DNA from: Candidatus Uhrbacteria bacterium | Lineage (GTDB): Bacteria; Patescibacteriota; Patescibacteriia; UBA9934; UBA10169 | DNA: 64,000 nucleotides | Assembly (NCBI GenBank): GCA_016187485.1 | Contig: JACPJO010000004.1 | Location: forward strand, 121,349-185,348 | Direction: 5' to 3' | In this document: positions 17,350 to 64,000 of the stretch, one piece after another | Position numbering within the stretch: the first letter of the stretch is position 1 | Layout of the letters: each line of letters starts with the position of its first letter | Translations under genes and position numbers: made by a program | Notes under the pieces: model-generated | Told to the model about the DNA's origin: nothing | The model's database searches: none | What the model saw: the letters and a program-made list of their open reading frames with translations, nothing else

Positions 17350-17492
17350 AACAGGCACTATGGTACTGTTTTCACTCCGTTTACGCAACGACTCCCCGTC
17401 CTCACGCTCCCCTTCGGCGAGTGCCACTAAAATACGAAACCACGTCATAGGACGTGGTGAGTACTGACCTCCGCAACCAGATAGGTTGGGGA

Positions 17493-18098
17493 TCAGAAGG
17501 TGAAGAACTGCGGAACGCTGTGCCAGGCCGTCTGGCGCTTTGGAGAAAGTTGGCTTTGCGCAAAGAGCATCATCGTCTCGATGGACCTGACCCGCATGGC
17601 CACACCGAAGCCTTCAAGCACCTTGAGACCCGCTCCCGTGAGTGCCAGGCTCTTTGTCTCTGGATCGCTTTCCCAGATCTCAGGATTCGTGTAGTCCCAG
17701 CGCTCCCCGTCGAAGAGGGCGTCACACTCCCCGGCCGCATCTTCGACGGCGACAACCCCCGGCGCGAGTTCCGCCATGCGGGTGGGAGCGTACTGCGGAA
17801 GCTGACGAGCAACTTTCCGGTAGTACTGGATGGCCTTCTGCCGCATCGTATCCATTGCTCCGTCTCCCTTCTTGGTGGAAAAAACGTATCCAAAACCCCC
17901 TGGCTCTGGACGTTCGCTACAGTAGCGTGCCGGTAGATAAAAATCAAAGGCGACTTCTTTTGACACAAAAGAAAGGCGGCACACTCCATTTTCTGAAGTT
18001 GTGCCGTCGACGCCTACTGGCTGATGAGATGAAGGAACGTGTCCGGCCTCCGAAATAGTGATGTCTGGTGCAGTATTCTTGAATTGGTCCGAACGCAT
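17493..18098 (-). CDS. Hypothetical protein (about 201 aa), directly upstream of proS on the same strand
   Basis: The ORF-track ORF (to 18290) overlaps the terminator of the preceding gene, so the start is placed at the internal ATG at 18098 (MRSDQF...). The C-terminal two thirds have ordinary globular composition. The opposite-strand ORFs are junk-like. Confidence 0.4.
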   Translation of the reverse strand: MRSDQFKNTAPDITISEAGHVPSSHQPVGVDGTTSENGVCRLSFVSKEVAFDFYLPARYCSERPEPGGFGYVFSTKKGDGAMDTMRQKAIQYYRKVARQLPQYAPTRMAELAPGVVAVEDAAGECDALFDGERWDYTNPEIWESDPETKSLALTGAGLKVLEGFGVAMRVRSIETMMLFAQSQLSPKRQTAWHSVPQFFTF

Positions 18099-18144
18099 TT
18101 CGCCGTCTGCGACGTTTCGCAAACCTGACCGCTCGGGTGCTGCC

Positions 18145-18170
18145 GAGAAAGAAAAGTCCCGCCTGGGACT
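18145..18170 (-). terminator. Rho-independent terminator after the zinc-ribbon repeat gene
   Basis: AGTCCCgcctGGGACT hairpin followed, on the minus strand, by TTTTCTTTCT, 14 nt downstream of the stop. Confidence 0.45.
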
Positions 18171-18183
18171 GAAGAAAAAATCC

Positions 18184-19074
18184 CTAGACGGGGCGAGCGG
18201 CCATATTGGCGTGCCGTTGACGTTGGTAGCAACTGGAGCAGATGGCCTTGCCGGTCTCGTTGCGAACCTGCACCGGTTTGACCTCACCACACGTGAAACA
18301 CTTCTCGTGCGTGGAGGGGTCTCGATAACGAGCTTTGTGATAGCAGTTCAGACAGATGGCTTCGCCGGTCTCGTTGCGAACCTCCACTCGTTTGACCTCG
18401 CCACACATGAAACACTTCTCGTGCCTGGAGGGGTCTTTGCGATAGCAGCTCGGACAGACGGCCCTGCCGATCTCGTTGCGAACCTCCACTCGTTTGACCT
18501 CGCCACACGCGAAACACTTCTCGTGCCTGGAAGGGTCTTTGCGATAGCAGTTCGGACAGATGGCTTCGCCGGTCTCGTTGCGAACCTGCACTCGTTTGAC
18601 CTCGTCACACACGAAACACTTCTCGTGCGTGGAGGGGTCTCGATAACGAGCCGTCTGATTGCAGTTCGGACAGATGGCTCCGCCGGTCTCGTTGCGCGCA
18701 GCCACCGGTTTGACCTCTCCACATTCCGAGCACTTCTCGTGAGTAGAAGGGTCGTGGTAGCGAGCCCTCTGATAGCAGTTCAGACAGATGGCCTCGCCGG
18801 TCTCGTTGTGCATTGTCAGCGGTTTGACCTCGCCACACGTGAAACACTCCCCGCACCTGGAAGGGTCTTTGCGATAGCAGTTCGAACAGGTGGCTTTGCC
18901 GGTCTCGTTGCGCGCAGCTATCGGTTTGACCTCGCCACACATGAAACACTTCTCGTGAGTAGAAGGATCGTGGTAGCGAGCCCACTGATAGCAGTTCAGA
19001 CAGATGGCTTTGCCGATCTTACGGTTTTTACGGACAGTCCTGTGCCGTCCGCAGGTATCACAAACACCTTTCAC
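18184..19074 (-). CDS. Tandem zinc-ribbon repeat protein: eight consecutive C-x2-C-x16-C-x2-C modules (296 aa)
   Basis: GTG start with a strong AAGGAGG RBS 7 nt upstream. Repeat unit HEKCFxCGEVKxVxxRNETGxAICxNCY(QxARYxDPST/RKDPSR) x8. The opposite-strand ORF 18058..19134 is its shadow. Confidence 0.75.
   Translation of the reverse strand: MKGVCDTCGRHRTVRKNRKIGKAICLNCYQWARYHDPSTHEKCFMCGEVKPIAARNETGKATCSNCYRKDPSRCGECFTCGEVKPLTMHNETGEAICLNCYQRARYHDPSTHEKCSECGEVKPVAARNETGGAICPNCNQTARYRDPSTHEKCFVCDEVKRVQVRNETGEAICPNCYRKDPSRHEKCFACGEVKRVEVRNEIGRAVCPSCYRKDPSRHEKCFMCGEVKRVEVRNETGEAICLNCYHKARYRDPSTHEKCFTCGEVKPVQVRNETGKAICSSCYQRQRHANMAARPV
18200..19060. repeat. Coding tandem DNA repeat, unit about 99-114 bp x8
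   Basis: Recurring ...CGTTTGACCTCGCCACACATGAAACACTTCTCGTG... blocks at about 18393, 18492, 18591 and onward. Confidence 0.7.
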
Positions 19075-19174
19075 GGCTGCACCTCCTTTCGGTTTGGATC
19101 CTGGAAAAGAGCAGACTCAGATCACTTGATCTGACACCGCACCGTACGTTATTACTTGCTCCACGTCAAGGCTA

Positions 19175-19203
19175 AAACGAAAAAGAAATCCCTCTGGGAT
19201 TTC
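19175..19203 (-). terminator. Rho-independent terminator after the DHQS-like gene
   Basis: GAAATCCCtctgGGATTTC hairpin followed on the minus strand by TTTTTCGTTTT. Confidence 0.45.
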
Positions 19204-19225
19204 TCATGAATTGCATCACTACTTT

Positions 19226-20209
19226 TTAACAGCTAAATTCTTCGACCGACTTCGGAATCTTAAATTTATCACAAAATTTTACAAACAATGGCAACAAATC
19301 ACTTTTTACTAATTCCAGTTCACGATATATCCCCATTGCGACGGCGAGTCCGTGTGGAATTTCAAAATGGGTGTCTTCTTCAATTCGGTCAGAAAGTTCA
19401 TGCCCACCTCTCAAAATTTTCCGCGAGCCGTTTGCGTTTTCTTCCACATCGATTTTTAGACACACTGCTTTCAAAGTCGCGGTCCACAAAATTACTTTCA
19501 GTAAAGATTTTTTATTTGTGTACGGGTCGAAGTCTTGTGAAAGTAAAAAATCAAGAAGTGTCTGTGACTGATAAATTGCATGTTTTATCACTTCGCCAAG
19601 CCCAGTCGAAATTTGTCTTTCTGAAAGTGTTTCTAAAAATCGTGGGTCGAGAAGTATTTGGTTTGGCTCGTAAAAACTTTTGTAATAGTGCTTAAAAAAT
19701 CTTCCTTTATCAATCATGTTTACCCTAACCTTTCCACCGCTTCCATCTGCCATACCGATTACGGTTGTTGGAATTTGCACAAGCGGAACACCCAACAGCT
19801 CGGCAACATACGCGGCGACGTTAAGTGTCAATCCACCACCAATTCCAACAACCTCTTTCGCTCCGCTTTCTTTGATACGATTTTGTTCAATAAAGTTTTT
19901 GAGCCAACCCCATTCTTTAAAGGTTTCTTCTCTCGCTTCTTCAAAAAATACATTTTCTTTCGGGAGAAAATCTTTGAGAAAAGTATTTGATAAACCCTTG
20001 TCGCAAAAAATCAATTGTGAATTATTAAATGTATTTTTTGAAAGAGAAGAAACAGAGAGAGAATATGATTTTATCTCGTCACTTCGTGGGTGGAACGAAG
20101 GAACATCGAAAAACAATTCGAACGAAGAAAGTTTGTCGTCCGAGATATTTTTAAACTTTTCGTCAGTAGTGAGCGATTCATTAAGAATTTTTGAATAAAG
20201 ACCGTGCAT
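19226..20209 (-). CDS. 3-dehydroquinate synthase-like (sugar-phosphate cyclase / Fe-ADH superfamily) protein
   Basis: VVGIGGGLTLNVAAYVAELLGVPLVQIPTTVIGMADGSGGKVRVN (DHQS-like GGG...PTT...D..GGK nucleotide/metal block) and HGLAVAMG. The gene is markedly AT-rich (about 37% GC) compared with its neighbours. Confidence 0.65.
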   Translation of the reverse strand: MHGLYSKILNESLTTDEKFKNISDDKLSSFELFFDVPSFHPRSDEIKSYSLSVSSLSKNTFNNSQLIFCDKGLSNTFLKDFLPKENVFFEEAREETFKEWGWLKNFIEQNRIKESGAKEVVGIGGGLTLNVAAYVAELLGVPLVQIPTTVIGMADGSGGKVRVNMIDKGRFFKHYYKSFYEPNQILLDPRFLETLSERQISTGLGEVIKHAIYQSQTLLDFLLSQDFDPYTNKKSLLKVILWTATLKAVCLKIDVEENANGSRKILRGGHELSDRIEEDTHFEIPHGLAVAMGIYRELELVKSDLLPLFVKFCDKFKIPKSVEEFSC

Positions 20210-20294: not shown

Positions 20295-20371
20295 TGGTGC
20301 GGCCGGAAGGAGTCGAACCCTCGACCTCGTGGTCCGAAGCCACGCGCTCTATCCAGCTGAGCTACGGCCGC
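20295..20371 (-). tRNA. tRNA-Arg (anticodon TCG)
   Basis: GCGGCCGTAGCTCAGCTGGATAGAGCGCGTGGCTTCGGACCACGAGGTCGAGGGTTCGACTCCTTCCGGCCGCACCA folds as a cloverleaf with anticodon loop CTTCGGA. Confidence 0.85.
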
Positions 20372-20446: not shown

Positions 20447-20522
20447 GGGCGCATAGCTCAGTTGGTAGAGCAGTTGGCTCTTAACCAAACGGTCGGAGGT
20501 TCGAATCCTCCTGCGCCCACCA
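20447..20522 (+). tRNA. tRNA-Lys (anticodon CTT)
   Basis: GGGCGCATAGCTCAGTTGGTAGAGCAGTTGGCTCTTAACCAAACGGTCGGAGGTTCGAATCCTCCTGCGCCCACCA with anticodon loop CTCTTAA. A GC hairpin (AAGCCCCGCcatgaGCGGGGCTT) follows at about 20563-20587. Confidence 0.85.
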
Positions 20523-20741
20523 GTCACCACAACTTCGAACCTCCAAGAACCCCAGCAAACAAGCCCCGCCATGAGCGGGGCTTGTGCGTTGGCGAAGTCG
20601 TCGTTGACGGGCGAATCAGCAGCAGCAGAGCCGCCTGTGGACAAGTCGGCGATGACTGACCACGAATTCGGACCACGATCGCACACGAGGGAGTAGAGTC
20701 ACCTGTAGAGCACCGTATGAAGAAGAGGGCTATTCATCTCC

Positions 20742-21560
20742 TTGCGCACCCGCGTCGCAGACCCGCCACCGGTAGGCGGCGTCGACTACGTCAACCGTCC
20801 CACTCCGCGCGGGCAGCCGCTTGCTGCCGCGTCACGCAACCGGAAGCTCGTCGTGCTGTCCGGGTTTTTCGCGTTCCTCAAGGAGAAGGGCCATGCGTCC
20901 GCAGATCCGACGGCGGGCGTGCCGTGGAGCCGGCTCACCCGGTCGGAGCGGCCTGCATTGACCGGCGCCGAGATCGGGCGGTTGCTCCGAGCCACGGAAC
21001 GGGCGCGAAGTCCCTGGGCGGCGGCGCGCGACGCCGCGCTCGTCTCGGTGCTGTTCCATGTCGGCCTGCGGCTCGCCGAGCTGGTGGCCCTCGACGTGGA
21101 CCAGGTGGACCTGCGGGCCGGCCTGCTCTTGGGCGTCAAGCGCAAGGGTGGCAACTCCCAGCCGTTGCCGCTCAACGAGTCAGCGAGGAACGCGCTCTCG
21201 GCCTGGCTGGAAGTTCGTGGCGAGGCCACTTCGTCGGCGCTTCTGCTGTCGCAGACCCGCGGTCGGCTGTCGCGTCGAGCCGTCGAAGCGCGGGTCGCGA
21301 CGCTCGGCCGCGTGGCCGGTTTCTCGTTCAACGTCTCGCCGCACATGCTTCGGCACGGGTTCGCGACGGAGATTCTCGCCGCCGGCGCGAACCTCGAAGA
21401 AGTCCGGCGACTGCTCGGGCACACCAGCATCCTGACGACCAGCCGGTATCTGCATCCCGACGGCAAGGCGCTGCGGGCGGCGGTCAACCGCCTGTCTCGA
21501 CCAGCTCGACGACGGGGTGGCGATGGAACTGGAAAACCAGAAGGGGTCGAAGACCCTTGA
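20742..21560 (+). CDS. Tyrosine recombinase/integrase (XerC/XerD-phage integrase family). The catalytic domain is intact but the N-terminal core-binding domain is missing.
   Basis: ...LLRATERARSPWAAARDAALVSVLFHVGLRLAELVALDVDQVDL...HMLRHGFATEILAAGANLEEVRRLLGHTSILTTSRYLH carries the R...K...HxxR...H...Y catalytic signature. The frame opens at 20721 (a stop lies just upstream) with a TTG start, so about 70 N-terminal residues of the usual fold are absent. Confidence 0.7.
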   Translation: MRTRVADPPPVGGVDYVNRPTPRGQPLAAASRNRKLVVLSGFFAFLKEKGHASADPTAGVPWSRLTRSERPALTGAEIGRLLRATERARSPWAAARDAALVSVLFHVGLRLAELVALDVDQVDLRAGLLLGVKRKGGNSQPLPLNESARNALSAWLEVRGEATSSALLLSQTRGRLSRRAVEARVATLGRVAGFSFNVSPHMLRHGFATEILAAGANLEEVRRLLGHTSILTTSRYLHPDGKALRAAVNRLSRPARRRGGDGTGKPEGVEDP

Positions 21561-21711
21561 CCCCGACCATGCGCCCTCTATAGACGAGGACGCAAGCGAC
21601 GCTGCCGGTCACGGTCACGCTCTTGTATTCTAAACATACGTTCAGTATACTGGTTCCTGACAGCGTGTCGCGACCCGCGCCGTTCAAGCCGCAGCATTCA
21701 TTGGAGCACAC

Positions 21712-21918
21712 ATGAGAGTGCAATACGCACGCCTGATCCGTTCGTTGGCACTCATGACAATTGGCTGGCTACTCCTACTCTACACCCCTCCGAACTTACC
21801 ACTCCCTCCGCTCGGCCCGCGCCTCACGTCCTCGCAGTACCTTCTCATCCACGCGATCGCCCTCTTCGCGATAATCCTGTCCCATCGATTGGATCTGCCG
21901 CGCCGGAAACGACCTTAG
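21712..21918 (+). CDS. Small hypothetical membrane protein (68 aa)
   Basis: GGAG 8 nt upstream and one predicted TM helix. Lies inside the island; low confidence. Confidence 0.2.
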   Translation: MRVQYARLIRSLALMTIGWLLLLYTPPNLPLPPLGPRLTSSQYLLIHAIALFAIILSHRLDLPRRKRP

Positions 21919-21977
21919 GTCGATCCGGCACTGGCCTACCCACCCGCTAAATGCGGGTGTTTCCATCTCCCCAGGAA

Positions 21978-22349
21978 TCAAACGTTGCGAGTTCGCATCC
22001 GACCGCGCTGGCGCCGAATCGCGTTTGTGGCGATGACCAACAGAGCGGCGGACGCGCCATTGGCACCCACCAAGATCAACGCACTGACGGCGACATCGGC
22101 GAAAGACACGTGAGATTGCGGTGCGTGACCCCAGAGGGTCTTGAGCAGCATCCCGACTAGAAAGACGAACAGCCCGAGTTCCATCGCAACGAGCGTGGCC
22201 CGCACACTTAGGCGGGATGCGCCCTCGAATGCCAGTTTCGCTATGTGTTCAGCGACCAGGGAGCCGACGATCACGACCACAGCGAACGACATCCATTGCA
22301 AGACTTGTTCGAACACACGAAGTCTCCCGCAGCGCACATACAGTTTCAC
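21978..22349 (-). CDS. Hypothetical membrane protein (123 aa)
   Basis: Two or three hydrophobic helices. It is in the same frame as the upstream ORF 22356..22772, separated only by a TAG and 2 codons. Confidence 0.3.
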   Translation of the reverse strand: MKLYVRCGRLRVFEQVLQWMSFAVVVIVGSLVAEHIAKLAFEGASRLSVRATLVAMELGLFVFLVGMLLKTLWGHAPQSHVSFADVAVSALILVGANGASAALLVIATNAIRRQRGRMRTRNV

Positions 22350-22355
22350 GCAACC

Positions 22356-22772
22356 CTACGCGAGTGGTCCCCTCTCCTTCACGATCACGAAAAGTACGAG
22401 GAGAGCTTCCAGGAGCAAGACAGCGCCCGCGACGAACAGCATTGCCCCGATGTCAGTCATCCTAAAAGTAACCGCAGCGAGCAGCATGGCGCCTACACAC
22501 ACCAGTGCAACAGACGCAGCGACGAACCCATCTCGGACTCGCGAGTCAACGCGCGCATCGTCAACCGATGGCAACACTGCGGTCACGGCTGCCGGATCGA
22601 CAGTGTCAGCCCCAAACACGCGACTGAAGGTAGCACCGTCGGGTCCCACGCTCACGGAGAGAAGCAGGCGTTCCATGATCCCTTCCTCTGCGATCCCAGA
22701 CTTGAGCATATCCCGGCTAATGATCCGTACTTCAGCGAGTCCCGCAGGGTCATCGTCCTTGACGTCTCGCAT
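22356..22772 (-). CDS. Hypothetical membrane protein (138 aa), possibly one gene with 21978..22349 interrupted by an in-frame amber codon
   Basis: C-terminal TM helices (VALVCVGAMLLAAVTF..., FVAGAVLLLEALLVLFVIV). The plus-strand ORFs 22141..22826 are Ser/Thr/Ala/Arg-rich shadows. Confidence 0.3.
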   Translation of the reverse strand: MRDVKDDDPAGLAEVRIISRDMLKSGIAEEGIMERLLLSVSVGPDGATFSRVFGADTVDPAAVTAVLPSVDDARVDSRVRDGFVAASVALVCVGAMLLAAVTFRMTDIGAMLFVAGAVLLLEALLVLFVIVKERGPLA

Positions 22773-22776
22773 TCTC

Positions 22777-23685
22777 CTAGACCTCCCACTCCGGCAGCCG
22801 TGCGGAATTTAGGCGCCAGAGGCTGAGGAGCGCCGCAACCGTTGTCTGGAACGCCCGCCCGGAGTCCTTCTCCCGTCGCCACGCCTCGTTGTCGTTGAAC
22901 TCCGACCACCGGTAGCGCGTCATGGCAGCGAGAATCACACTCCCGGGTATCGACTCACCCAGCGACTCGCCTGCCCGGAGCTTCTGCAGGGCGGCAATGG
23001 ACGAGGACCCAGTTGAGTCAATACTACTCGCCGGCGCGATCACGCCTCGGAGGACCTTGCGGAGCATGGGGGCAGACTGATCACTCGCCCCAAGAGTCGT
23101 GAGAGCCGACGCCACACTCCTGCAACACGAGACGGCGACTTCGACTGCAGCAGGCACGAGATATGGAGATTCCAGGACATCGGCGACTACACGCCGACGA
23201 GACTGGACGAGTCTGTCAGCGAGTCTCCGCCACACGTACCCAAAGTACTCCGCGCCATCCGTGCAACGTCTCTCGATCCACCGGCCGAGTATCAGCACGG
23301 GTGGACGCGCGATCATCTCCATTGCTTCGAGGAACTCGGCAGCCCCCCAAGAGAGCAACTCGCGCGGCGAGTATTGCTCAACGAGTCCAGTAACCATTCC
23401 CATGGCGGCGAAGCGCGCGCAACTCGTTGCCACGGCCGCTCCGAAACGCGCTGAGTCCTGGTACTGCGAGGCGACTACCCCGAACAGCCCCTTAAGATAG
23501 CGGTCGGCATCGAGCTCAAAGCCGATACCGAACGCAAACAGGTCTGGCAAGAACTCAACCACCTCCGGGTTGAGCAGCCGCCCGGCGCCTTCGGATGTCC
23601 GCGCAACCCGCTCAGCGAAGACATGTCGAGCAGCGAAGTGCCCGGCTTCGTGCGCGATGGGCCACCATCGGTAGACATCGAACAT
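22777..23685 (-). CDS. HEXXH-motif protein (candidate ImmA/IrrE-like zinc metallopeptidase); the motif lies only 10 residues from the N-terminus, so the gene is possibly 5'-truncated
   Basis: WWPIAHEAGHFAARHVF (HExGHxxxxH). The reading frame has a stop 40 codons upstream and no ATG/GTG/TTG in between. Confidence 0.35.
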   Translation of the reverse strand: MFDVYRWWPIAHEAGHFAARHVFAERVARTSEGAGRLLNPEVVEFLPDLFAFGIGFELDADRYLKGLFGVVASQYQDSARFGAAVATSCARFAAMGMVTGLVEQYSPRELLSWGAAEFLEAMEMIARPPVLILGRWIERRCTDGAEYFGYVWRRLADRLVQSRRRVVADVLESPYLVPAAVEVAVSCCRSVASALTTLGASDQSAPMLRKVLRGVIAPASSIDSTGSSSIAALQKLRAGESLGESIPGSVILAAMTRYRWSEFNDNEAWRREKDSGRAFQTTVAALLSLWRLNSARLPEWEV

Positions 23686-24208
23686 CGATGTCGTCGTCAG
23701 ATCAATTACACCGAGGCGGTGCGAATACGGGACTCTTGGATCGAACCCAAATGTAACGAGGCCGCCCGTGCGAAGTTCTGCTCCTCGGCAAGCACAAGGA
23801 AGTCAACACCTGGACCGATTGGGACCGCTGGCTTTGTGGACACCGCTTCTCCGCGTTTGGGATCGCCAGTCTACGTACAGTAAGTCAAGTAGGTTAGAGT
23901 TTATAGCCGAAGCGGAGCAGTCTCGCAAGAAAAGCTCTTGCCACGGAGACATGTCCTTAGCTAGAACGAAAGCGCCCGGCCGGACAGAAGTCCGACCGGG
24001 CTAGAGAGCGTCGCGACGACGCGGTGTTCGGGCAGGCACCCGAATCCCCGCCTGCGCGGCGTAGACGGCGCGGTAATGCTGTCGCGCCGCCGCCTTCCAC
24101 CCGCCCACGGTGCAACACACCGGAGGAGAGCGACATGCAGGCCGCGACGCATCCCTTGTAGCCTATTGAGGCCACAGACCGCAACGTCTGTCAAGCACAC
24201 GTAACTCT

Positions 24209-25126
24209 TCAACTTTCCCGGCTCCCCAAGCTGGTGCGGGAATCTCTGTCCCGTGCCGGCTCCCGGTGAGTCCTTGTCCAGGCGGCCCGGCAACCGTCGG
24301 GCGACCTTGAGGAACCCCCATGTCCGCTCTGTATCGGCCTGCCCCGACCTCCACTTCTCCGCTCCCCACCCTCGCCCTCGACCTGGTCTGCCGCGACCTC
24401 GTGCTCCGGCTTCAGCCCCCGATTCGCATCAAGGTCATCGCCGCACTCGCGGCCGGCGAGCGCGATCCCAGCCGGGTCGCCGAGCACGCCTCGCAGATCC
24501 GCCGGAGGATCGGCTGGCCACGCGACGTTCGGACGTCGATTTGCCGTGCTGACCTCGTACGTATCCTGCGTCGCCTGCTCGATGTTCGCCCAGCACGAAG
24601 GCGTGACGCGGAAGGCTGCCCCTGCCGACGGACCCTCGAAGAAGTCCAGGCCCGAATCCTGAGCTCCGTCATGCACGAAGTGGTTTCGGACCGAATACGA
24701 TATGGCAGCAGGCCAGCCGAACGATTGCCGGATCGAGTCGAAGAGCGCCGAAGCGGTGTCTCGCTTCGATGTTTTTCGGACGATGAACTGCGAGATCAGC
24801 CGCGCAGGCGACTTCGAGTTGCGGCCGGCTTCAGGAGTGCAGAGCACCCGACCGACAAGCCCAGTAACTGAGTCCGAGATCGCCCAGGTAGTTGTAAGAT
24901 AAGCGGAAACTCCCAGGAATCGAGCGTTTCGAAACCTGACGCGAGTGGCGCCAAAGGGGACGCGATCGTCACCGTCAACGCGCTTCTCAAGGTCGGCCAA
25001 GAAGGTTCGTGCGTCTTCGCGGGCAATGATCAGGTCACGCCACCGATCTACTTCGAGACGACTGTCGACCATGCCCCGGAACCCGTCCTCGACTTCCTTT
25101 GGCAACGCGCTTGGACAGCGCAACAA
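24209..25126 (-). CDS. Hypothetical protein (island); the N-terminal about 200 aa are protein-like and the C-terminus is low complexity
   Basis: Ordinary aa composition in MLRCPSALPKEVEDGFRGMVDSRLEVDRWRDLIIAREDARTFLADLEK.... The plus-strand ORF 24320..24871 conflicts with it, and the coding strand is unresolved. Confidence 0.2.
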   Translation of the reverse strand: MLRCPSALPKEVEDGFRGMVDSRLEVDRWRDLIIAREDARTFLADLEKRVDGDDRVPFGATRVRFRNARFLGVSAYLTTTWAISDSVTGLVGRVLCTPEAGRNSKSPARLISQFIVRKTSKRDTASALFDSIRQSFGWPAAISYSVRNHFVHDGAQDSGLDFFEGPSAGAAFRVTPSCWANIEQATQDTYEVSTANRRPNVAWPADPPADLRGVLGDPAGIALAGRECGDDLDANRGLKPEHEVAADQVEGEGGERRSGGRGRPIQSGHGGSSRSPDGCRAAWTRTHREPARDRDSRTSLGSRES

Positions 25127-26738
25127 CGCCTTGTCGATACCGTCGTGCAGGGCTGTCGGGCCCGCTCAGCGTAGTCTGGATGTGGAACGAGAAGCCCTCG
25201 CTCCAGGTGTGCTGCCGTTCGAGCGACGTTGCCGGAACGAGCAGGGCGCTGAGGACACTGGCCCGGGCGGGAGTGGGGGCCTCCCTCGCTACATCCTCGA
25301 CGAGACAGACACCCAGGCGGGTTGCCGACCCCTCAAAGTCTGACCAAAACCCCGGGCCGCCTGCCAATGTTCTCCCAATGAGGTCCTTTGCCCGCTTTCC
25401 GTCGTTCGGTAGGCCACGTGCCCGCCTCGACGCGATTGAGAACTCCTCTTCGGCCACCGAGCAGAGTTCCTGCAGTATTCGATCCGGATCGTCCGCCGCC
25501 GTCGCTCCCATCGCGGCGTAGAAGAGCGGCCAGGCGAGCGTCAGGACAACGTCGTCGAGGCCGATGTTCCGCTCACCGAAGAGCCACTCGACGGACTCAG
25601 TCCTTACGGAGAGAGTACGCAGGCATCTGCAGAGCTCGACGCAGTCCAGGGGCCGGAACTCGGCCACAAGTTCAAGCAGTTCGCCGATTTTCACCCGCTG
25701 AGATGCTGAGCAGCGCTCGATGCCGGCGCGCAACTCGAACGCAAACCGCTCCAGGAGGCCGACGCGCCGTCCTGCTAGTCTCAAGATTCTCTCGCTCCTG
25801 GCAAGCGAAACAAGGACCGCGCGTCCTGCAACACTCAGATTCCCGGACAGTGACGCTTCTAGCACGCCCGTCAGTAGCGCTTCCGCGGCCTCCGAGGGTT
25901 GCAGCGACGCGGCACTGTCTCCGACATCGACGAACAGCCAGGTGCGCAGGACATGATCGCGAAGTACATCGGGCTTCAGCTCCACCAGCCTGTTCCGAGC
26001 GCCCCGTTCCGACAGAGCACGCCTGCGTACGAGGGACGCGATGGCGGCCCTCGCCGCCGGAATGCCAGGAAGCCCGGCGTTCTCGGCCAGGAGTTGGACC
26101 TGCGAGTCATCTTCCCGATTGACGGTACCTAGCAGGGCAACCCACCGGAGGAGAGTGTTGACCTGTTCTGCGGGAAGCTCTGTCTGCTGCTCCACCACCT
26201 CTCGGAGGTACACGTTCGCCAATCCGTCTGCGGTCTCTGGGCTCGCGTGCAGAGCGTGCAGGAGCGCCGGAGCGTCGACTCGGGCGAGAAGGGCAGCCGC
26301 TGCTTCCTCCTGCGAGGGCTTCTCTACTGCGGGCTCTGCCAGCGCCGGATGACGGCCGAACTCCATCCCAAGGGCGCCTACTACCGCTGCTACCCCGATG
26401 CCGATGGCCGCCATTGTCCCGCACGCTACACCCCCGTCCTTCAGTTCGACGCGGAGGTGGAGCAGCGGCTGGAGAACATCTCGCTTCCCCGGGAGACCGT
26501 GGTGTCCCTCAGCGCGGCCCTGGATCATCTTGCCGAAAAGCAGGAAGCAAGGTGCACCGAGGAACGGCGGAGTCTCGGCACGAAGCAGAGCCTGTTGCAA
26601 AACCAGCTCCTGCAGGTGACCGACGGCTACGTGCGAGGCGTGGTCCCCGCGGCTGCGTATGCGCCGCTCCGTGATCGTTACCAGGCGGAACTCAACCAGG
26701 TGGAAGCCTGCCTCCGGGCTCTGGACCGCGATGTCCAC
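25035..26738 (-). CDS. Long ORF (567 aa) of uncertain reality in 70% GC DNA
   Basis: No recognisable domain. It overlaps the clearly recognisable serine-recombinase fragment on the plus strand (26247-26738), so at least its 5' portion is probably a shadow. Confidence 0.12.
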   Translation of the reverse strand: MDIAVQSPEAGFHLVEFRLVTITERRIRSRGDHASHVAVGHLQELVLQQALLRAETPPFLGAPCFLLFGKMIQGRAEGHHGLPGKRDVLQPLLHLRVELKDGGVACGTMAAIGIGVAAVVGALGMEFGRHPALAEPAVEKPSQEEAAAALLARVDAPALLHALHASPETADGLANVYLREVVEQQTELPAEQVNTLLRWVALLGTVNREDDSQVQLLAENAGLPGIPAARAAIASLVRRRALSERGARNRLVELKPDVLRDHVLRTWLFVDVGDSAASLQPSEAAEALLTGVLEASLSGNLSVAGRAVLVSLARSERILRLAGRRVGLLERFAFELRAGIERCSASQRVKIGELLELVAEFRPLDCVELCRCLRTLSVRTESVEWLFGERNIGLDDVVLTLAWPLFYAAMGATAADDPDRILQELCSVAEEEFSIASRRARGLPNDGKRAKDLIGRTLAGGPGFWSDFEGSATRLGVCLVEDVAREAPTPARASVLSALLVPATSLERQHTWSEGFSFHIQTTLSGPDSPARRYRQGVVALSKRVAKGSRGRVPGHGRQSSRSRSVA

Positions 26739-27008
26739 GCGGACGTGGCTGCGGTGAAGTCCCTGCTACAGATGGCCGGGGCGCTCCGGCGCTTCTACGA
26801 CCTGGCGCCAACCGAGCGCGAGAAGAAGGATCTGCTGACTCGGGTCTTCCATCGCATCGTCGTCGTCGACCGCACCGTCCAATCCATCGAGTACCAAGCC
26901 CCCTTCGACTGCCTGCTCTCCGACGACAGCCGGTTGCGGGGTTCTGAGATTCCACCGGACGCAGCGCGGGAGCTGCTCGAAGCCGGCCAGAGTGCGCTGG
27001 CGGCCTGA
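26247..27008 (+). pseudogene. C-terminal fragment (zinc ribbon + coiled coil) of a large serine recombinase; the N-terminal resolvase catalytic domain is absent
   Basis: LLRGLLYCGLCQRRMTAELHPKGAYYRCYPDADGRHCPARYTPVLQFDAEVEQRLENISL matches the LSR zinc-beta-ribbon pattern L.GLL.CG.CG..M....YY.C....C, followed by a coiled coil. The frame opens at 26133 (stop at 26130) with no resolvase domain upstream in any frame. Confidence 0.55.
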
Positions 27009-62909: not shown

Positions 62910-63093
62910 ACGCCCGCTACGTAAGAACTTTCACAATTTATAGCATTACGAAACCAATTAGATTTTGTGTGATCATAACGTCCTCGCGTGGCCTTCGGGC
63001 CGCCCGAGATTATCACCAAGATAATAATTCCTTTATAGAGTATAGAGCGAAAGCTCAAACAGCAGATCCCTCGCAAGAGGGGTATATCTGAGA

Positions 63094-64000
<907 letters not shown>

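Follow-up and report, generated by a model that had tools for sequence, protein, structure and literature searches.

Tandem arrays of zinc fingers that bind nucleic acids are already known as a kind; GATA fingers bind DNA, and the C-terminal zinc ribbons of topoisomerases bind single-stranded DNA. Xu & Gupta 2013 (PMC3592412) describe phage zinc-ribbon proteins that are encoded next to HNH nickases, as well as zinc modules fused to HNH nucleases, and PMC9369019 describes tandem C4 repeats in the C-terminal domain of type IA topoisomerases. A further domain rich in cysteines, TackOD1 (~200 aa, 11 conserved Cys), is found joined to the receiver domains of archaeal proteins (Galperin et al. 2018, PMC5847659). 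Here we describe a gene from Candidatus Uhrbacteria that encodes a row of eight C4 modules. It lies on the minus strand at 18184-19074 of a 64,000-nucleotide stretch of the 255,752-bp contig JACPJO010000004.1 (metagenome-assembled genome, assembly GCA_016187485.1, positions 121,349 to 185,348 of the forward strand), which we call the window and whose numbering is used throughout. The protein belongs to a clear, sizeable and uncharacterised family, and what is new about it is a prokaryotic stand-alone array of units that, in sequence and in modelled fold, look GATA-like. At about even chances, we favour reading it as a modular nucleic-acid binder, most probably of DNA, built of eight treble-clef fingers.

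Architecture and predicted fold of the array

The gene is a single uninterrupted open reading frame (ORF) of 891 nt, and its product of 296 aa (33.7 kDa) has a pI of 8.85, a net charge of +17 (K+R-D-E) and 33 Cys (11%). Using a regular expression, we found exactly eight C-x2-C-x16-C-x2-C modules in it. The units measure 34 or 38 residues and follow each other in the order 38-34-38-38-34-34-38-38 (L S L L S S L L), while Tandem Repeats Finder reported periods of 102 bp (score 591) and 114 bp (score 385) in the DNA. The preliminary description of this locus had presented the product as a concatenation of near-identical zinc modules of 33 and 38 residues, with the two unit lengths alternating. 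The eight modules and both periods stand; the lengths are instead 34 and 38, they do not alternate, and the first unit is divergent, with 53-61% identity in the core DNA, compared with 71-95% among units 2-8.

In the direction of translation, on the minus strand, the array opens with the divergent N-terminal module 1 (38 aa, CDTCGRHRTVRKNRKIGKAICLNCY, 18949-19062), which carries the family signature V(H/R)xNRKTGK. Module 2 (34 aa, 18847-18948) has a short linker that ends in RCGE in place of RHEK, giving an extra CxxC, and module 3 (38 aa, 18733-18846) has the long linker ARYHDPSTHEK. They are followed by module 4 (38 aa, 18619-18732), module 5 (34 aa, 18517-18618), whose core DNA is 95% identical to that of module 7, module 6 (34 aa, 18415-18516) and module 7 itself (38 aa, 18301-18414). 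Finally, module 8 (38 aa, 18187-18300) includes the C-terminal tail YQRQRHANMAARPV (18187-18228). The linkers of the protein take the forms RKDPSRHEK and xARYxDPSTHEK.

Regarding conservation, C1, C4, C21 and C24, plus G17 and A19, are kept in all eight modules of the window protein. Among 349 modules taken from 119 small members of the family, the four Cys are invariant, positions G5, K/R8, V10, R13, G17, P/A19, I/V20, Y+1 and R/K+3 are conserved, and positions 2, 3, 7, 9, 11, 12, 14-16, 18, 22 and 23 are highly variable. Between the modules of the window protein, the ratio of nonsynonymous to synonymous substitution rates (dN/dS) was 0.50 overall, and 0.73 at the variable positions versus 0.23 elsewhere, the variable positions for this split having been picked after seeing the data. 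This indicates relaxed constraint at the variable positions. Synonymous divergence among modules 2-8 is itself patchy, with values of ~0.18 at the codons of conserved residues and ~0.66 at those of the variable loop; partial gene conversion with patchy homogenisation, or localised mutation, could have produced such a pattern.

Modelling of the whole protein with AlphaFold2 gave a mean predicted local distance difference test score (pLDDT) of 84.3 and a predicted template modelling score (pTM) of 0.36, that is, confident beads whose mutual orientation is undefined; the low pTM fits beads on a string. A single module (module 7, with 22 aligned modules) was modelled with a pLDDT of 84.6, reaching 94 in the core, and a pTM of 0.60, and showed strands at residues 5-7, 14-20 and 26-28 and a helix at 29-38. 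The same pattern appears in every modelled module: a short strand runs into the first CxxC knuckle, the beta-hairpin comes next, and at the second CxxC a helix sets in. As modelled, this topology is that of a treble clef, not of a classical two-hairpin zinc ribbon.

By comparing the module profile with all PDB sequences, we obtained GATA-1 as the first match (E 3.4e-4), GATA-3 with an E of 9.6e-4, and AreA, GATA-2 and GATA-4 at 0.02-0.04, all aligned along the pattern C..C...(W)RRN..G.P(V/I)C..C. Alignment of the module profile to five GATA fingers with hhalign gave a probability of 86% (P 5e-6), and Pfam GATA matched one relative, P0095, weakly (E 0.0096). We refer to the modules as 'GATA-like treble-clef C4 fingers', a name that expresses a resemblance in sequence and model and makes no claim of membership or homology. 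When the whole model was searched against the PDB with Foldseek, only array-type matches came up: fingers 3-11 of CTCF (the best, E 2.9e-4), LIM arrays (PINCH, LMO2/4; probability 0.98) and GATA3. Against viral models, the same tool returned mostly HNH and endonuclease VII proteins, from phages as well as giant viruses, with E values from 2.5e-7 to 1e-3.

The array family and its possible function

Only three curated models reached their cut-off on the window protein: Pfam TackOD1 (PF18551), with 41.1 bits versus a cut-off of 32, this being the sum of six partial matches to profile positions 106-136 of 188, and, barely at threshold, DZR_2 (PF18912, 30 bits versus 27) and DZR (PF12773, 27.4 versus 27.3). 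DZR_2 also matches 39 of the 150 best family hits, and is a generic label that carries no function. Searches of the array protein with NCBIfam and PADLOC gave nothing meaningful. The 'antitoxin' profile phrog_4681 (46.7 bits) was rejected as a function, for its score comes from one ribbon segment (profile 50-78 of 87) that is matched repeatedly. The preliminary description had not recognised the product as a described family, and we arrive at the same view, as Pfam, NCBIfam, PHROGs and PADLOC give generic or partial zinc-ribbon matches and the relatives are named 'hypothetical protein'. No description of the family was found in the full-text literature searched, which does not cover all journals, so this absence is no proof.

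A word-indexed search of 5.8 billion clusters retrieved eight relatives and a two-module profile 28, all of them unnamed or 'hypothetical protein'. The single-module profile (35 positions, alignment A3), used in an exhaustive search of 1.84 billion representatives, gave 630 matches at E <= 1e-3, 233 at E <= 1e-10 and 18 at E <= 1e-30, and scores the window protein at 442.8 bits. The alignment of whole family proteins was not conserved enough to serve in a search for loci. Scanning metagenomes with the pattern V[HRS][KRH]NRKTG[KQ] produced 16 hits, namely 15 array loci and one false positive, a topoisomerase I (L035). A scan of viral contigs with the array protein found no relatives. The named source genomes are Candidatus Uhrbacteria (the window), Falkowbacteria (L006) and 'Saccharibacteria' (L007), all of the Candidate Phyla Radiation (CPR), and one partial match lies on a 1.8-kb contig labelled Rectinemataceae; from these few named records, we infer that the family occurs mainly in CPR bacteria.

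The family comprises two populations. In the first one, the proteins are small (76-352 aa) and stand alone, with 2-10 modules each. Their N-terminal module follows the pattern M(K/E)GxCxxC...V(H/R)xNRKTGKxxCxxCY, their linkers are of the (Y)(R/Q)K(ARYx)DPSxHEK type, the last ribbon is often short (C..C-x11-(A)LGLC..CY), and the C-terminal tail reads CYQRQRRAxMAA(R/H)PA-COOH, with the dipeptide PA terminal in 22 of 134 small members. The window protein has this N-terminal module, at least two internal modules of the form C-x2-C-x15-17-C-x2-C with these linkers and no other domain, and the C-terminal tail in the wider form CYQRQRRxxMAAxP(A/V)-COOH, which places it among the stand-alone members. 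When its N-terminus (MKGVCDTCGRHRTVRKNRKIGKAICLNCY) was aligned with those of 11 family members, C5, C8, V14, N17, G21, C25 and C28 were invariant. Its C-terminus (CYQRQRHANMAARPV, ending in ...QRQRHANMAARPV) can be compared with ...QRQRRASMAARPA in P0007 and ...QRQRRVRMDARPV in L025; the window protein and L025 end in RPV. The tail is common to the window protein, P0004, P0007, P0016, P0024, P0038, L006, L025 and others.

Members of the second population are long (300-926 aa) and combine the same array with further domains. Two of them, P0112 and P0148, contain a Pfam GIY-YIG domain at 64 bits, above the cut-off, and P0112 also gave sub-threshold tyrosine-recombinase matches (Pfam E 1.2e-4; NCBIfam XerA E 7.5e-7). 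Among the 150 best family hits, one has a Pfam HNH match (E 5e-10) and 12 share a conserved C-terminal domain of 110 aa with the motif YHIDHIxPL...NHQWL...ENxxKG. The best PDB match of this domain is the HNH domain of Cas9, aligned on the same motif with a non-significant E of 0.94, and it is on the motif that we assign it as probably HNH-type. Another C-terminal domain, which a 'homing endonuclease' PHROG matches weakly (E 0.003), is present in a group that includes P0026, P0111 and P0129. Finally, a set of high-GC members of ~670-880 aa (P0035, P0090, P0095, P0119, P0143, P0145, P0150, P0153 and P0155) couples the finger array to a C-terminal domain of ~340 aa, with the motifs WLFPG..PGRH and R.TAL..LA...P..VLA..LG, that has no match in Pfam, NCBIfam or PDB sequences. 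The idea that this last domain is a degenerate tyrosine recombinase was dropped, as no tool supports it.

Four observations argue for modular DNA binding: wherever a catalytic domain could be recognised in a fusion with the array, it is one that acts on DNA (GIY-YIG, HNH-type and possibly recombinase); the structural matches among viral models are HNH and endonuclease VII proteins; among solved structures, the sequences closest to the module belong to DNA-binding GATA fingers; and the protein is basic. The preliminary description had proposed a multivalent binder of nucleic acid or protein, and such binding is suggested indirectly by the array-nuclease fusions and by the resemblance of the modules to GATA fingers. 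In the mechanism that we propose, each 34/38-residue module would bind one zinc through its four Cys, and the modules would be strung like beads on short basic linkers of the form (Y)RKDPSxHEK. The grip of each finger on the backbone would come from its conserved basic residues (K/R8, R13 and R/K at +3), whereas the variable hairpin residues (9, 11, 12, 14-16 and 18), together with the number of fingers, would set the footprint and the specificity. In other lineages, the same array would be the part of HNH, GIY-YIG and possibly recombinase-like enzymes that does no catalysis and presumably provides targeting. The stand-alone form of CPR bacteria would probably act as a DNA-binding regulator, a nucleoid protein or a site-occluding factor, and its conserved C-terminal tail may contact a partner.

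Several results weigh against DNA binding. The fusion argument is drawn from distant relatives and not from the stand-alone subfamily. The scanned neighbours in the window contain no HNH domain, and the fused HNH-type profile has no match anywhere in the window. No neighbour gene is conserved beyond close relatives in an all-against-all BLAST of the ORFs of 15 loci. The similarity to GATA is weak (E about 1e-3), with a loop of 16 residues versus 17, and Pfam GATA (PF00320) does not match the window protein even at E <= 10. All Foldseek matches of a single module have E > 0.6 and a template modelling score of ~0.5; they are treble-clef structures (RING, LIM/CRP, PHD, AreA and GATA-1), and several of these classes bind proteins, not DNA. 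Besides, positive selection between modules was not detected (dN/dS <= 0.73), so selection for new specificities is not seen, and the role comes with no binding site that could be proposed.

The structural matches just listed bear as well on a second explanation, in which the protein is an adaptor or scaffold like LIM, RING or PHD proteins, each finger docking a peptide or partner and the tail being one docking element. RING, PHD and LIM head the non-significant list of the single module, the LIM arrays were among the matches of the whole model, and the conserved ...MAA(R/H)PA tail suggests a partner-binding peptide. However, a LIM, RING or PHD domain requires two zinc sites, interleaved or paired, while the sites of the array sit singly in independent beads; the domains found fused to the array are nucleases, and these need a part that targets DNA; and no conserved neighbour gene could encode the partner. 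We regard a scaffold as quite unlikely.

Copy number also differs between relatives. Loci L026 and L006 have syntenic flanks with 89-98% DNA identity, and their array genes encode 2+1 modules (112 aa) and 6+1 modules (259 aa), respectively; both ends of the genes align, and L006 has ~490 bp extra in the middle. There is no exact repeat of 11 bp or more in L026 and the longest in L006 measures 21 bp; lacking long exact repeats, this pair is unlikely to reflect assembly collapse. In L028 and L029, whose flanks are 99-99.96% identical, two tandem array genes are found in each locus: gene A encodes 322 aa (9 modules) in L028 and 254 aa (7) in L029, and gene B 250 aa (7) and 352 aa (10), respectively. 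Inside the longer alleles, stretches of 112 and 173 bp recur exactly at offsets of 204 and 306 bp and mark recent block duplications of two and three modules; given such long repeats, the shorter alleles could be assembly collapses. The flanks of L032 are 93% identical and its gene A encodes 220 aa (6 modules), with a longest exact repeat of 27 bp. Close relatives with 70-77% identity in the first module (L020-L024, P0052) range from 2 to at least 4 modules. The tandem pairs of array genes span positions 1685-3605 of L028, 1681-3703 of L029 and 5530-6426 of L022.

According to these comparisons, gain and loss of whole units in the family is well supported, and the copy-number variation that the preliminary description had expected of such arrays is indeed seen in the relatives L026/L006 and L028/L029, homologues with a different repeat number having been found. 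In the relatives, the array is seen to change in frame, single units of 102/114 bp as well as blocks of several units being gained or lost. A unit number that varies freely between strains is also what one would expect if capacity alone mattered, as in a zinc store or buffer resembling metallothioneins or zinc-ribbon ribosomal paralogues, where the number of units tunes the capacity. With 11% Cys, the 34-kDa protein would offer eight predicted Zn(Cys)4 sites. Yet many non-ligand residues, the linker, the N-terminal module and the C-terminal tail are kept even between distant genomes, which a mere sink would not require; zinc is bound tightly by structural Cys4 treble-clef sites and exchanges poorly from them; and no zinc-uptake or Zur-type genes lie near the scanned loci. 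A storage role is therefore, in our opinion, very unlikely.

Gene signals, assembly and neighbourhood

All the signals of the gene named by the preliminary description (the GTG start, the ribosome-binding site and the terminator) were located in the sequence. On the minus strand, the GTG start codon (19072-19074), also used by the relatives L021-L025, L033 and L007, has the Shine-Dalgarno sequence AAGGAGGT (19081-19088) 6 nt on its 5' side. The ORF of the array ends with a TAG stop codon (18184-18186), and 14 nt past it starts an intrinsic-terminator-like structure (18145-18170), formed by the hairpin AGTCCCAGGCGGGACT (18155-18170) and the T-run TTTCTTTCTC. The upstream gene, a DHQ-synthase-like gene, has a terminator-like hairpin of its own (19183-19205, minus strand), which sets the 5' limit of the transcription unit of the array gene; for this reason, the array gene looks monocistronic. 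A further suggestion, that the gene is strongly expressed, did not stand: the Shine-Dalgarno sequence speaks for it, but no sigma-70-like promoter was found in 17400-19400 and the 5' leader of the gene has no significant RNA structure (z = -0.04).

It might be objected that the locus is not a gene, either because it is an assembly artefact or a non-coding minisatellite, or because the antisense ORF of 358 aa (18058-19134, plus strand) is the true gene. Indeed, an exact look-up in a collection of 15 billion proteins did not find the array protein (with either start residue) or its internal-ATG version, in spite of the presence there of the neighbours on the same NCBI contig. Moreover, the k=31 unitigs from at least 10 runs of the source study all end at 18324 or 18333, inside the array, and the gene caller took the antisense frame on these unitig fragments (loci L008-L019). 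Nevertheless, the longest exact repeat within the array is 39 bp (a 39-mer at 18295 and 18613). The breaks of the k=31 unitigs sit exactly at this internal 39-mer and are caused by it, and reads of at least 100 nt, or k >= 41, resolve the array unambiguously. The sense strand has 296 open codons with ribosome-binding site, start and terminator, and its frame, with the invariant Cys, is kept in more than 20 related loci with a GC content of 0.29-0.51, whereas the antisense frame is broken in L006 and others; the protein of the antisense ORF was likewise absent from the collection, and the 630 matches to the module profile are hard to reconcile with an artefact. We consider this objection hardly credible and treat the gene as real and correctly assembled. 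The disrupted frame or repeat collapse that the preliminary description had feared is not seen. Since even a protein collection of this size lacks the gene, and assemblies made with short k break off within the array, families like this one are systematically under-sampled, and repeat-encoded genes of such kind are under-represented in protein and metagenome catalogues.

The module-profile search found a single array gene in the 64-kb window and no second one. On one side of it, prolyl-tRNA synthetase (ProRS, MBI2484918.1, HYW18_02085) and lysyl-tRNA synthetase (LysRS, MBI2484917.1) are encoded. Between the ProRS gene and the array gene, an orphan ORF of 120 aa (17493-17855, minus strand; 157 aa in the NCBI version, MBI2484919.1, HYW18_02090) belongs to no Pfam or PADLOC family and was encountered in samples of the same study only; the spacer of ~730 bp (17450-18183) has no other convincing gene, and shows a terminator-like hairpin at 17911-17888. 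On the other side, the DHQ-synthase-like gene (19226-20209, minus strand; Pfam DHQ_synthase + DHQS_C), annotated as 'hypothetical protein' MBI2484921.1 (HYW18_02100), has a GC content of 0.376, compared with a window mean of 0.557. Such a low value in a genome of GC 0.56 suggests that it was recently acquired. It is followed by tRNA-Arg (20295-20371, minus strand) and tRNA-Lys (ctt) (20447-20522, plus strand). The preliminary description had seen a variable region here, and the AT-rich gene and the two tRNAs do adjoin the array gene; the link is one of position only, and the context is not conserved in the family.

A tyrosine recombinase (20742-21560, plus strand; Phage_integrase 114 bits, GC 0.70) starts 220 bp past tRNA-Lys (ctt). 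After it come ~6 kb of DNA with a GC content of 0.63 (region 20447-27000), whose ORFs are without Pfam or PADLOC matches but for a serine-recombinase zinc beta-ribbon fragment at 26247-27008 (plus strand). This recombinase-led region is probably an integrated element; an att-like direct repeat of the tRNA end was not found for 20447-27000. At its far end, the window contains the 5' part of a bacterial 16S rRNA gene (63084-64000, plus strand; model positions 1-932), which runs off the window.

In the related loci too, housekeeping genes make up most of the neighbourhood: the array genes lie next to PilB and PurM-like genes in L006, to PNPase, DksA-like and YifB genes in L007, to UvrABC and 3-methyladenine glycosylase genes in L001, to DprA, TopA and ParB genes in L036, and to RecJ, RNase H and GIY-YIG genes in L038; L002 has IF-2 nearby. 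Genes of DNA metabolism (repair or partition) seem frequent near array loci. The translation genes in these neighbourhoods are in turn relevant to the alternative that the protein binds RNA (rRNA, tRNA or mRNA, structured or single-stranded) or is a translation-associated factor. C4 ribbons of many ribosomal proteins and RanBP2-type fingers bind RNA, and, in addition to ProRS, LysRS and the tRNAs of the window, IF-2 (L002) and PNPase (L007) accompany array genes. The basic charge of the protein would suit RNA too, as would weak profile matches to the ribosomal L24 zinc ribbon (E about 2-3), a match of Zn_ribbon_RanBP to P0112 that is below the cut-off (E 1e-5) and a single-module Foldseek match to an archaeal ribosomal protein (E 0.97). 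On the other hand, small CPR genomes are dominated by translation genes, so that adjacency is expected by chance, and none of these neighbours is conserved; the catalytic domains fused to the array all act on DNA (GIY-YIG, HNH and possibly recombinase), and the best sequence matches are DNA-binding GATA fingers. RNA binding thus appears rather unlikely to us, and we keep DNA as the most probable ligand.

Comparison with known zinc-module systems

The HNH-associated zinc ribbons of phages resemble the array family in having Cys-based zinc modules fused to HNH nucleases or beside them (PMC3592412), and our module profile likewise occurs in fusions with HNH-type and GIY-YIG domains. An HNH_3 gene precedes the array gene of L002-L004 by 190 bp on the same strand, an arrangement like that described for phages. 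The phage ribbons differ in the number of sites, one or two there compared with 2-13 regular repeats in the array family, and in their setting, as the window gene stands among housekeeping genes and not in a phage cos/terminase region.

The ribbons of type IA topoisomerases (PF01396, Topo_C_ZnRpt) are, like those of the array, bacterial tandem C4 modules of ~40 residues. In contrast with the array, they follow a catalytic domain in the same protein, no helix comes after their second, CxxYPxC-like knuckle, and each lineage has a fixed number of repeats. PF01396 gave no match on the window protein even at E <= 10, and the 296 aa contain no catalytic domain. The topoisomerase I that our metagenome pattern picked up (L035, Ga0058697_10008570) has a C-terminal ribbon, CPNCGKNLIVRRNRKTGKRF, with the VRRNRKTGK hairpin motif of the N-terminal module of the family; the motif may hint at a shared nucleic-acid-binding hairpin.

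TackOD1 and DZR / DZR_2 share with the array the condition of being multi-CxxC domains of unknown function. The assignment of the window protein to TackOD1 was ruled out, given that only positions 106-136 of the 188-position profile, and not its full length, were matched; these names describe the spacing of Cys and not the array family. Nor does the protein look like a store of the metallothionein type: it has no CxC/CC clusters and shows only regular CxxC pairs in a modelled hairpin plus helix with a core pLDDT of 84-94.

GATA fingers (PF00320; GATA-1/2/3/4, AreA) are C4 treble clefs too, with an x17 loop where the array has C-x2-C-x16-C-x2-C, and in both the hairpin motif R(R/N)N..G.P(V/I)C..C leads into a helix and basic residues. 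The GATA proteins, in contrast, come from eukaryotes and carry one or two fingers; the window protein has eight, its relatives 2-13, and nothing else. The modules of the window also have a loop one residue shorter and lack the Trp and the conserved Asn-Ala of the knuckles. The window protein falls below the GATA profile threshold and does not show the C-x2-C-x17-C-x2-C spacing with a TPLWRR hairpin and a CNAC knuckle. Even so, the resemblance is weak but consistent, and bears on the origin of the eukaryotic GATA DNA-binding domain.

Finally, the C2H2 arrays of eukaryotes (CTCF, KRAB-ZNF, PRDM9) are similar to the array in being beads on a string that gain and lose units through a minisatellite-like DNA repeat and in having their variable residues concentrated at a few positions per finger. 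They differ in fold (beta-beta-alpha C2H2 versus C4 treble clef) and in kingdom, and the window array shows no positive selection; the likeness would be one of functional analogy only. If the arrays do bind DNA modularly, they would provide a compact, repeat-encoded bacterial recognition scaffold with ~35 residues per unit, which would bear on gene regulation and mobile-element control in CPR bacteria and might become an engineering scaffold beside C2H2 fingers and transcription-activator-like effectors (TALEs). A bolder proposal, which we find improbable, is that the family is a CPR-rich bacterial poly-zinc-finger system for DNA recognition, made of GATA-like C4 fingers that each read a few bases with their variable hairpin residues and whose units are reshuffled. 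Were it true, specificity would be reprogrammed by gain, loss and shuffling of 102/114-bp units, and the same arrays would serve HNH and GIY-YIG homing nucleases as targeting domains and also work as stand-alone regulators or site-blockers. The arrays would then be a prokaryotic counterpart of C2H2 arrays or TALEs, possibly tied to the ancestry of eukaryotic GATA fingers.

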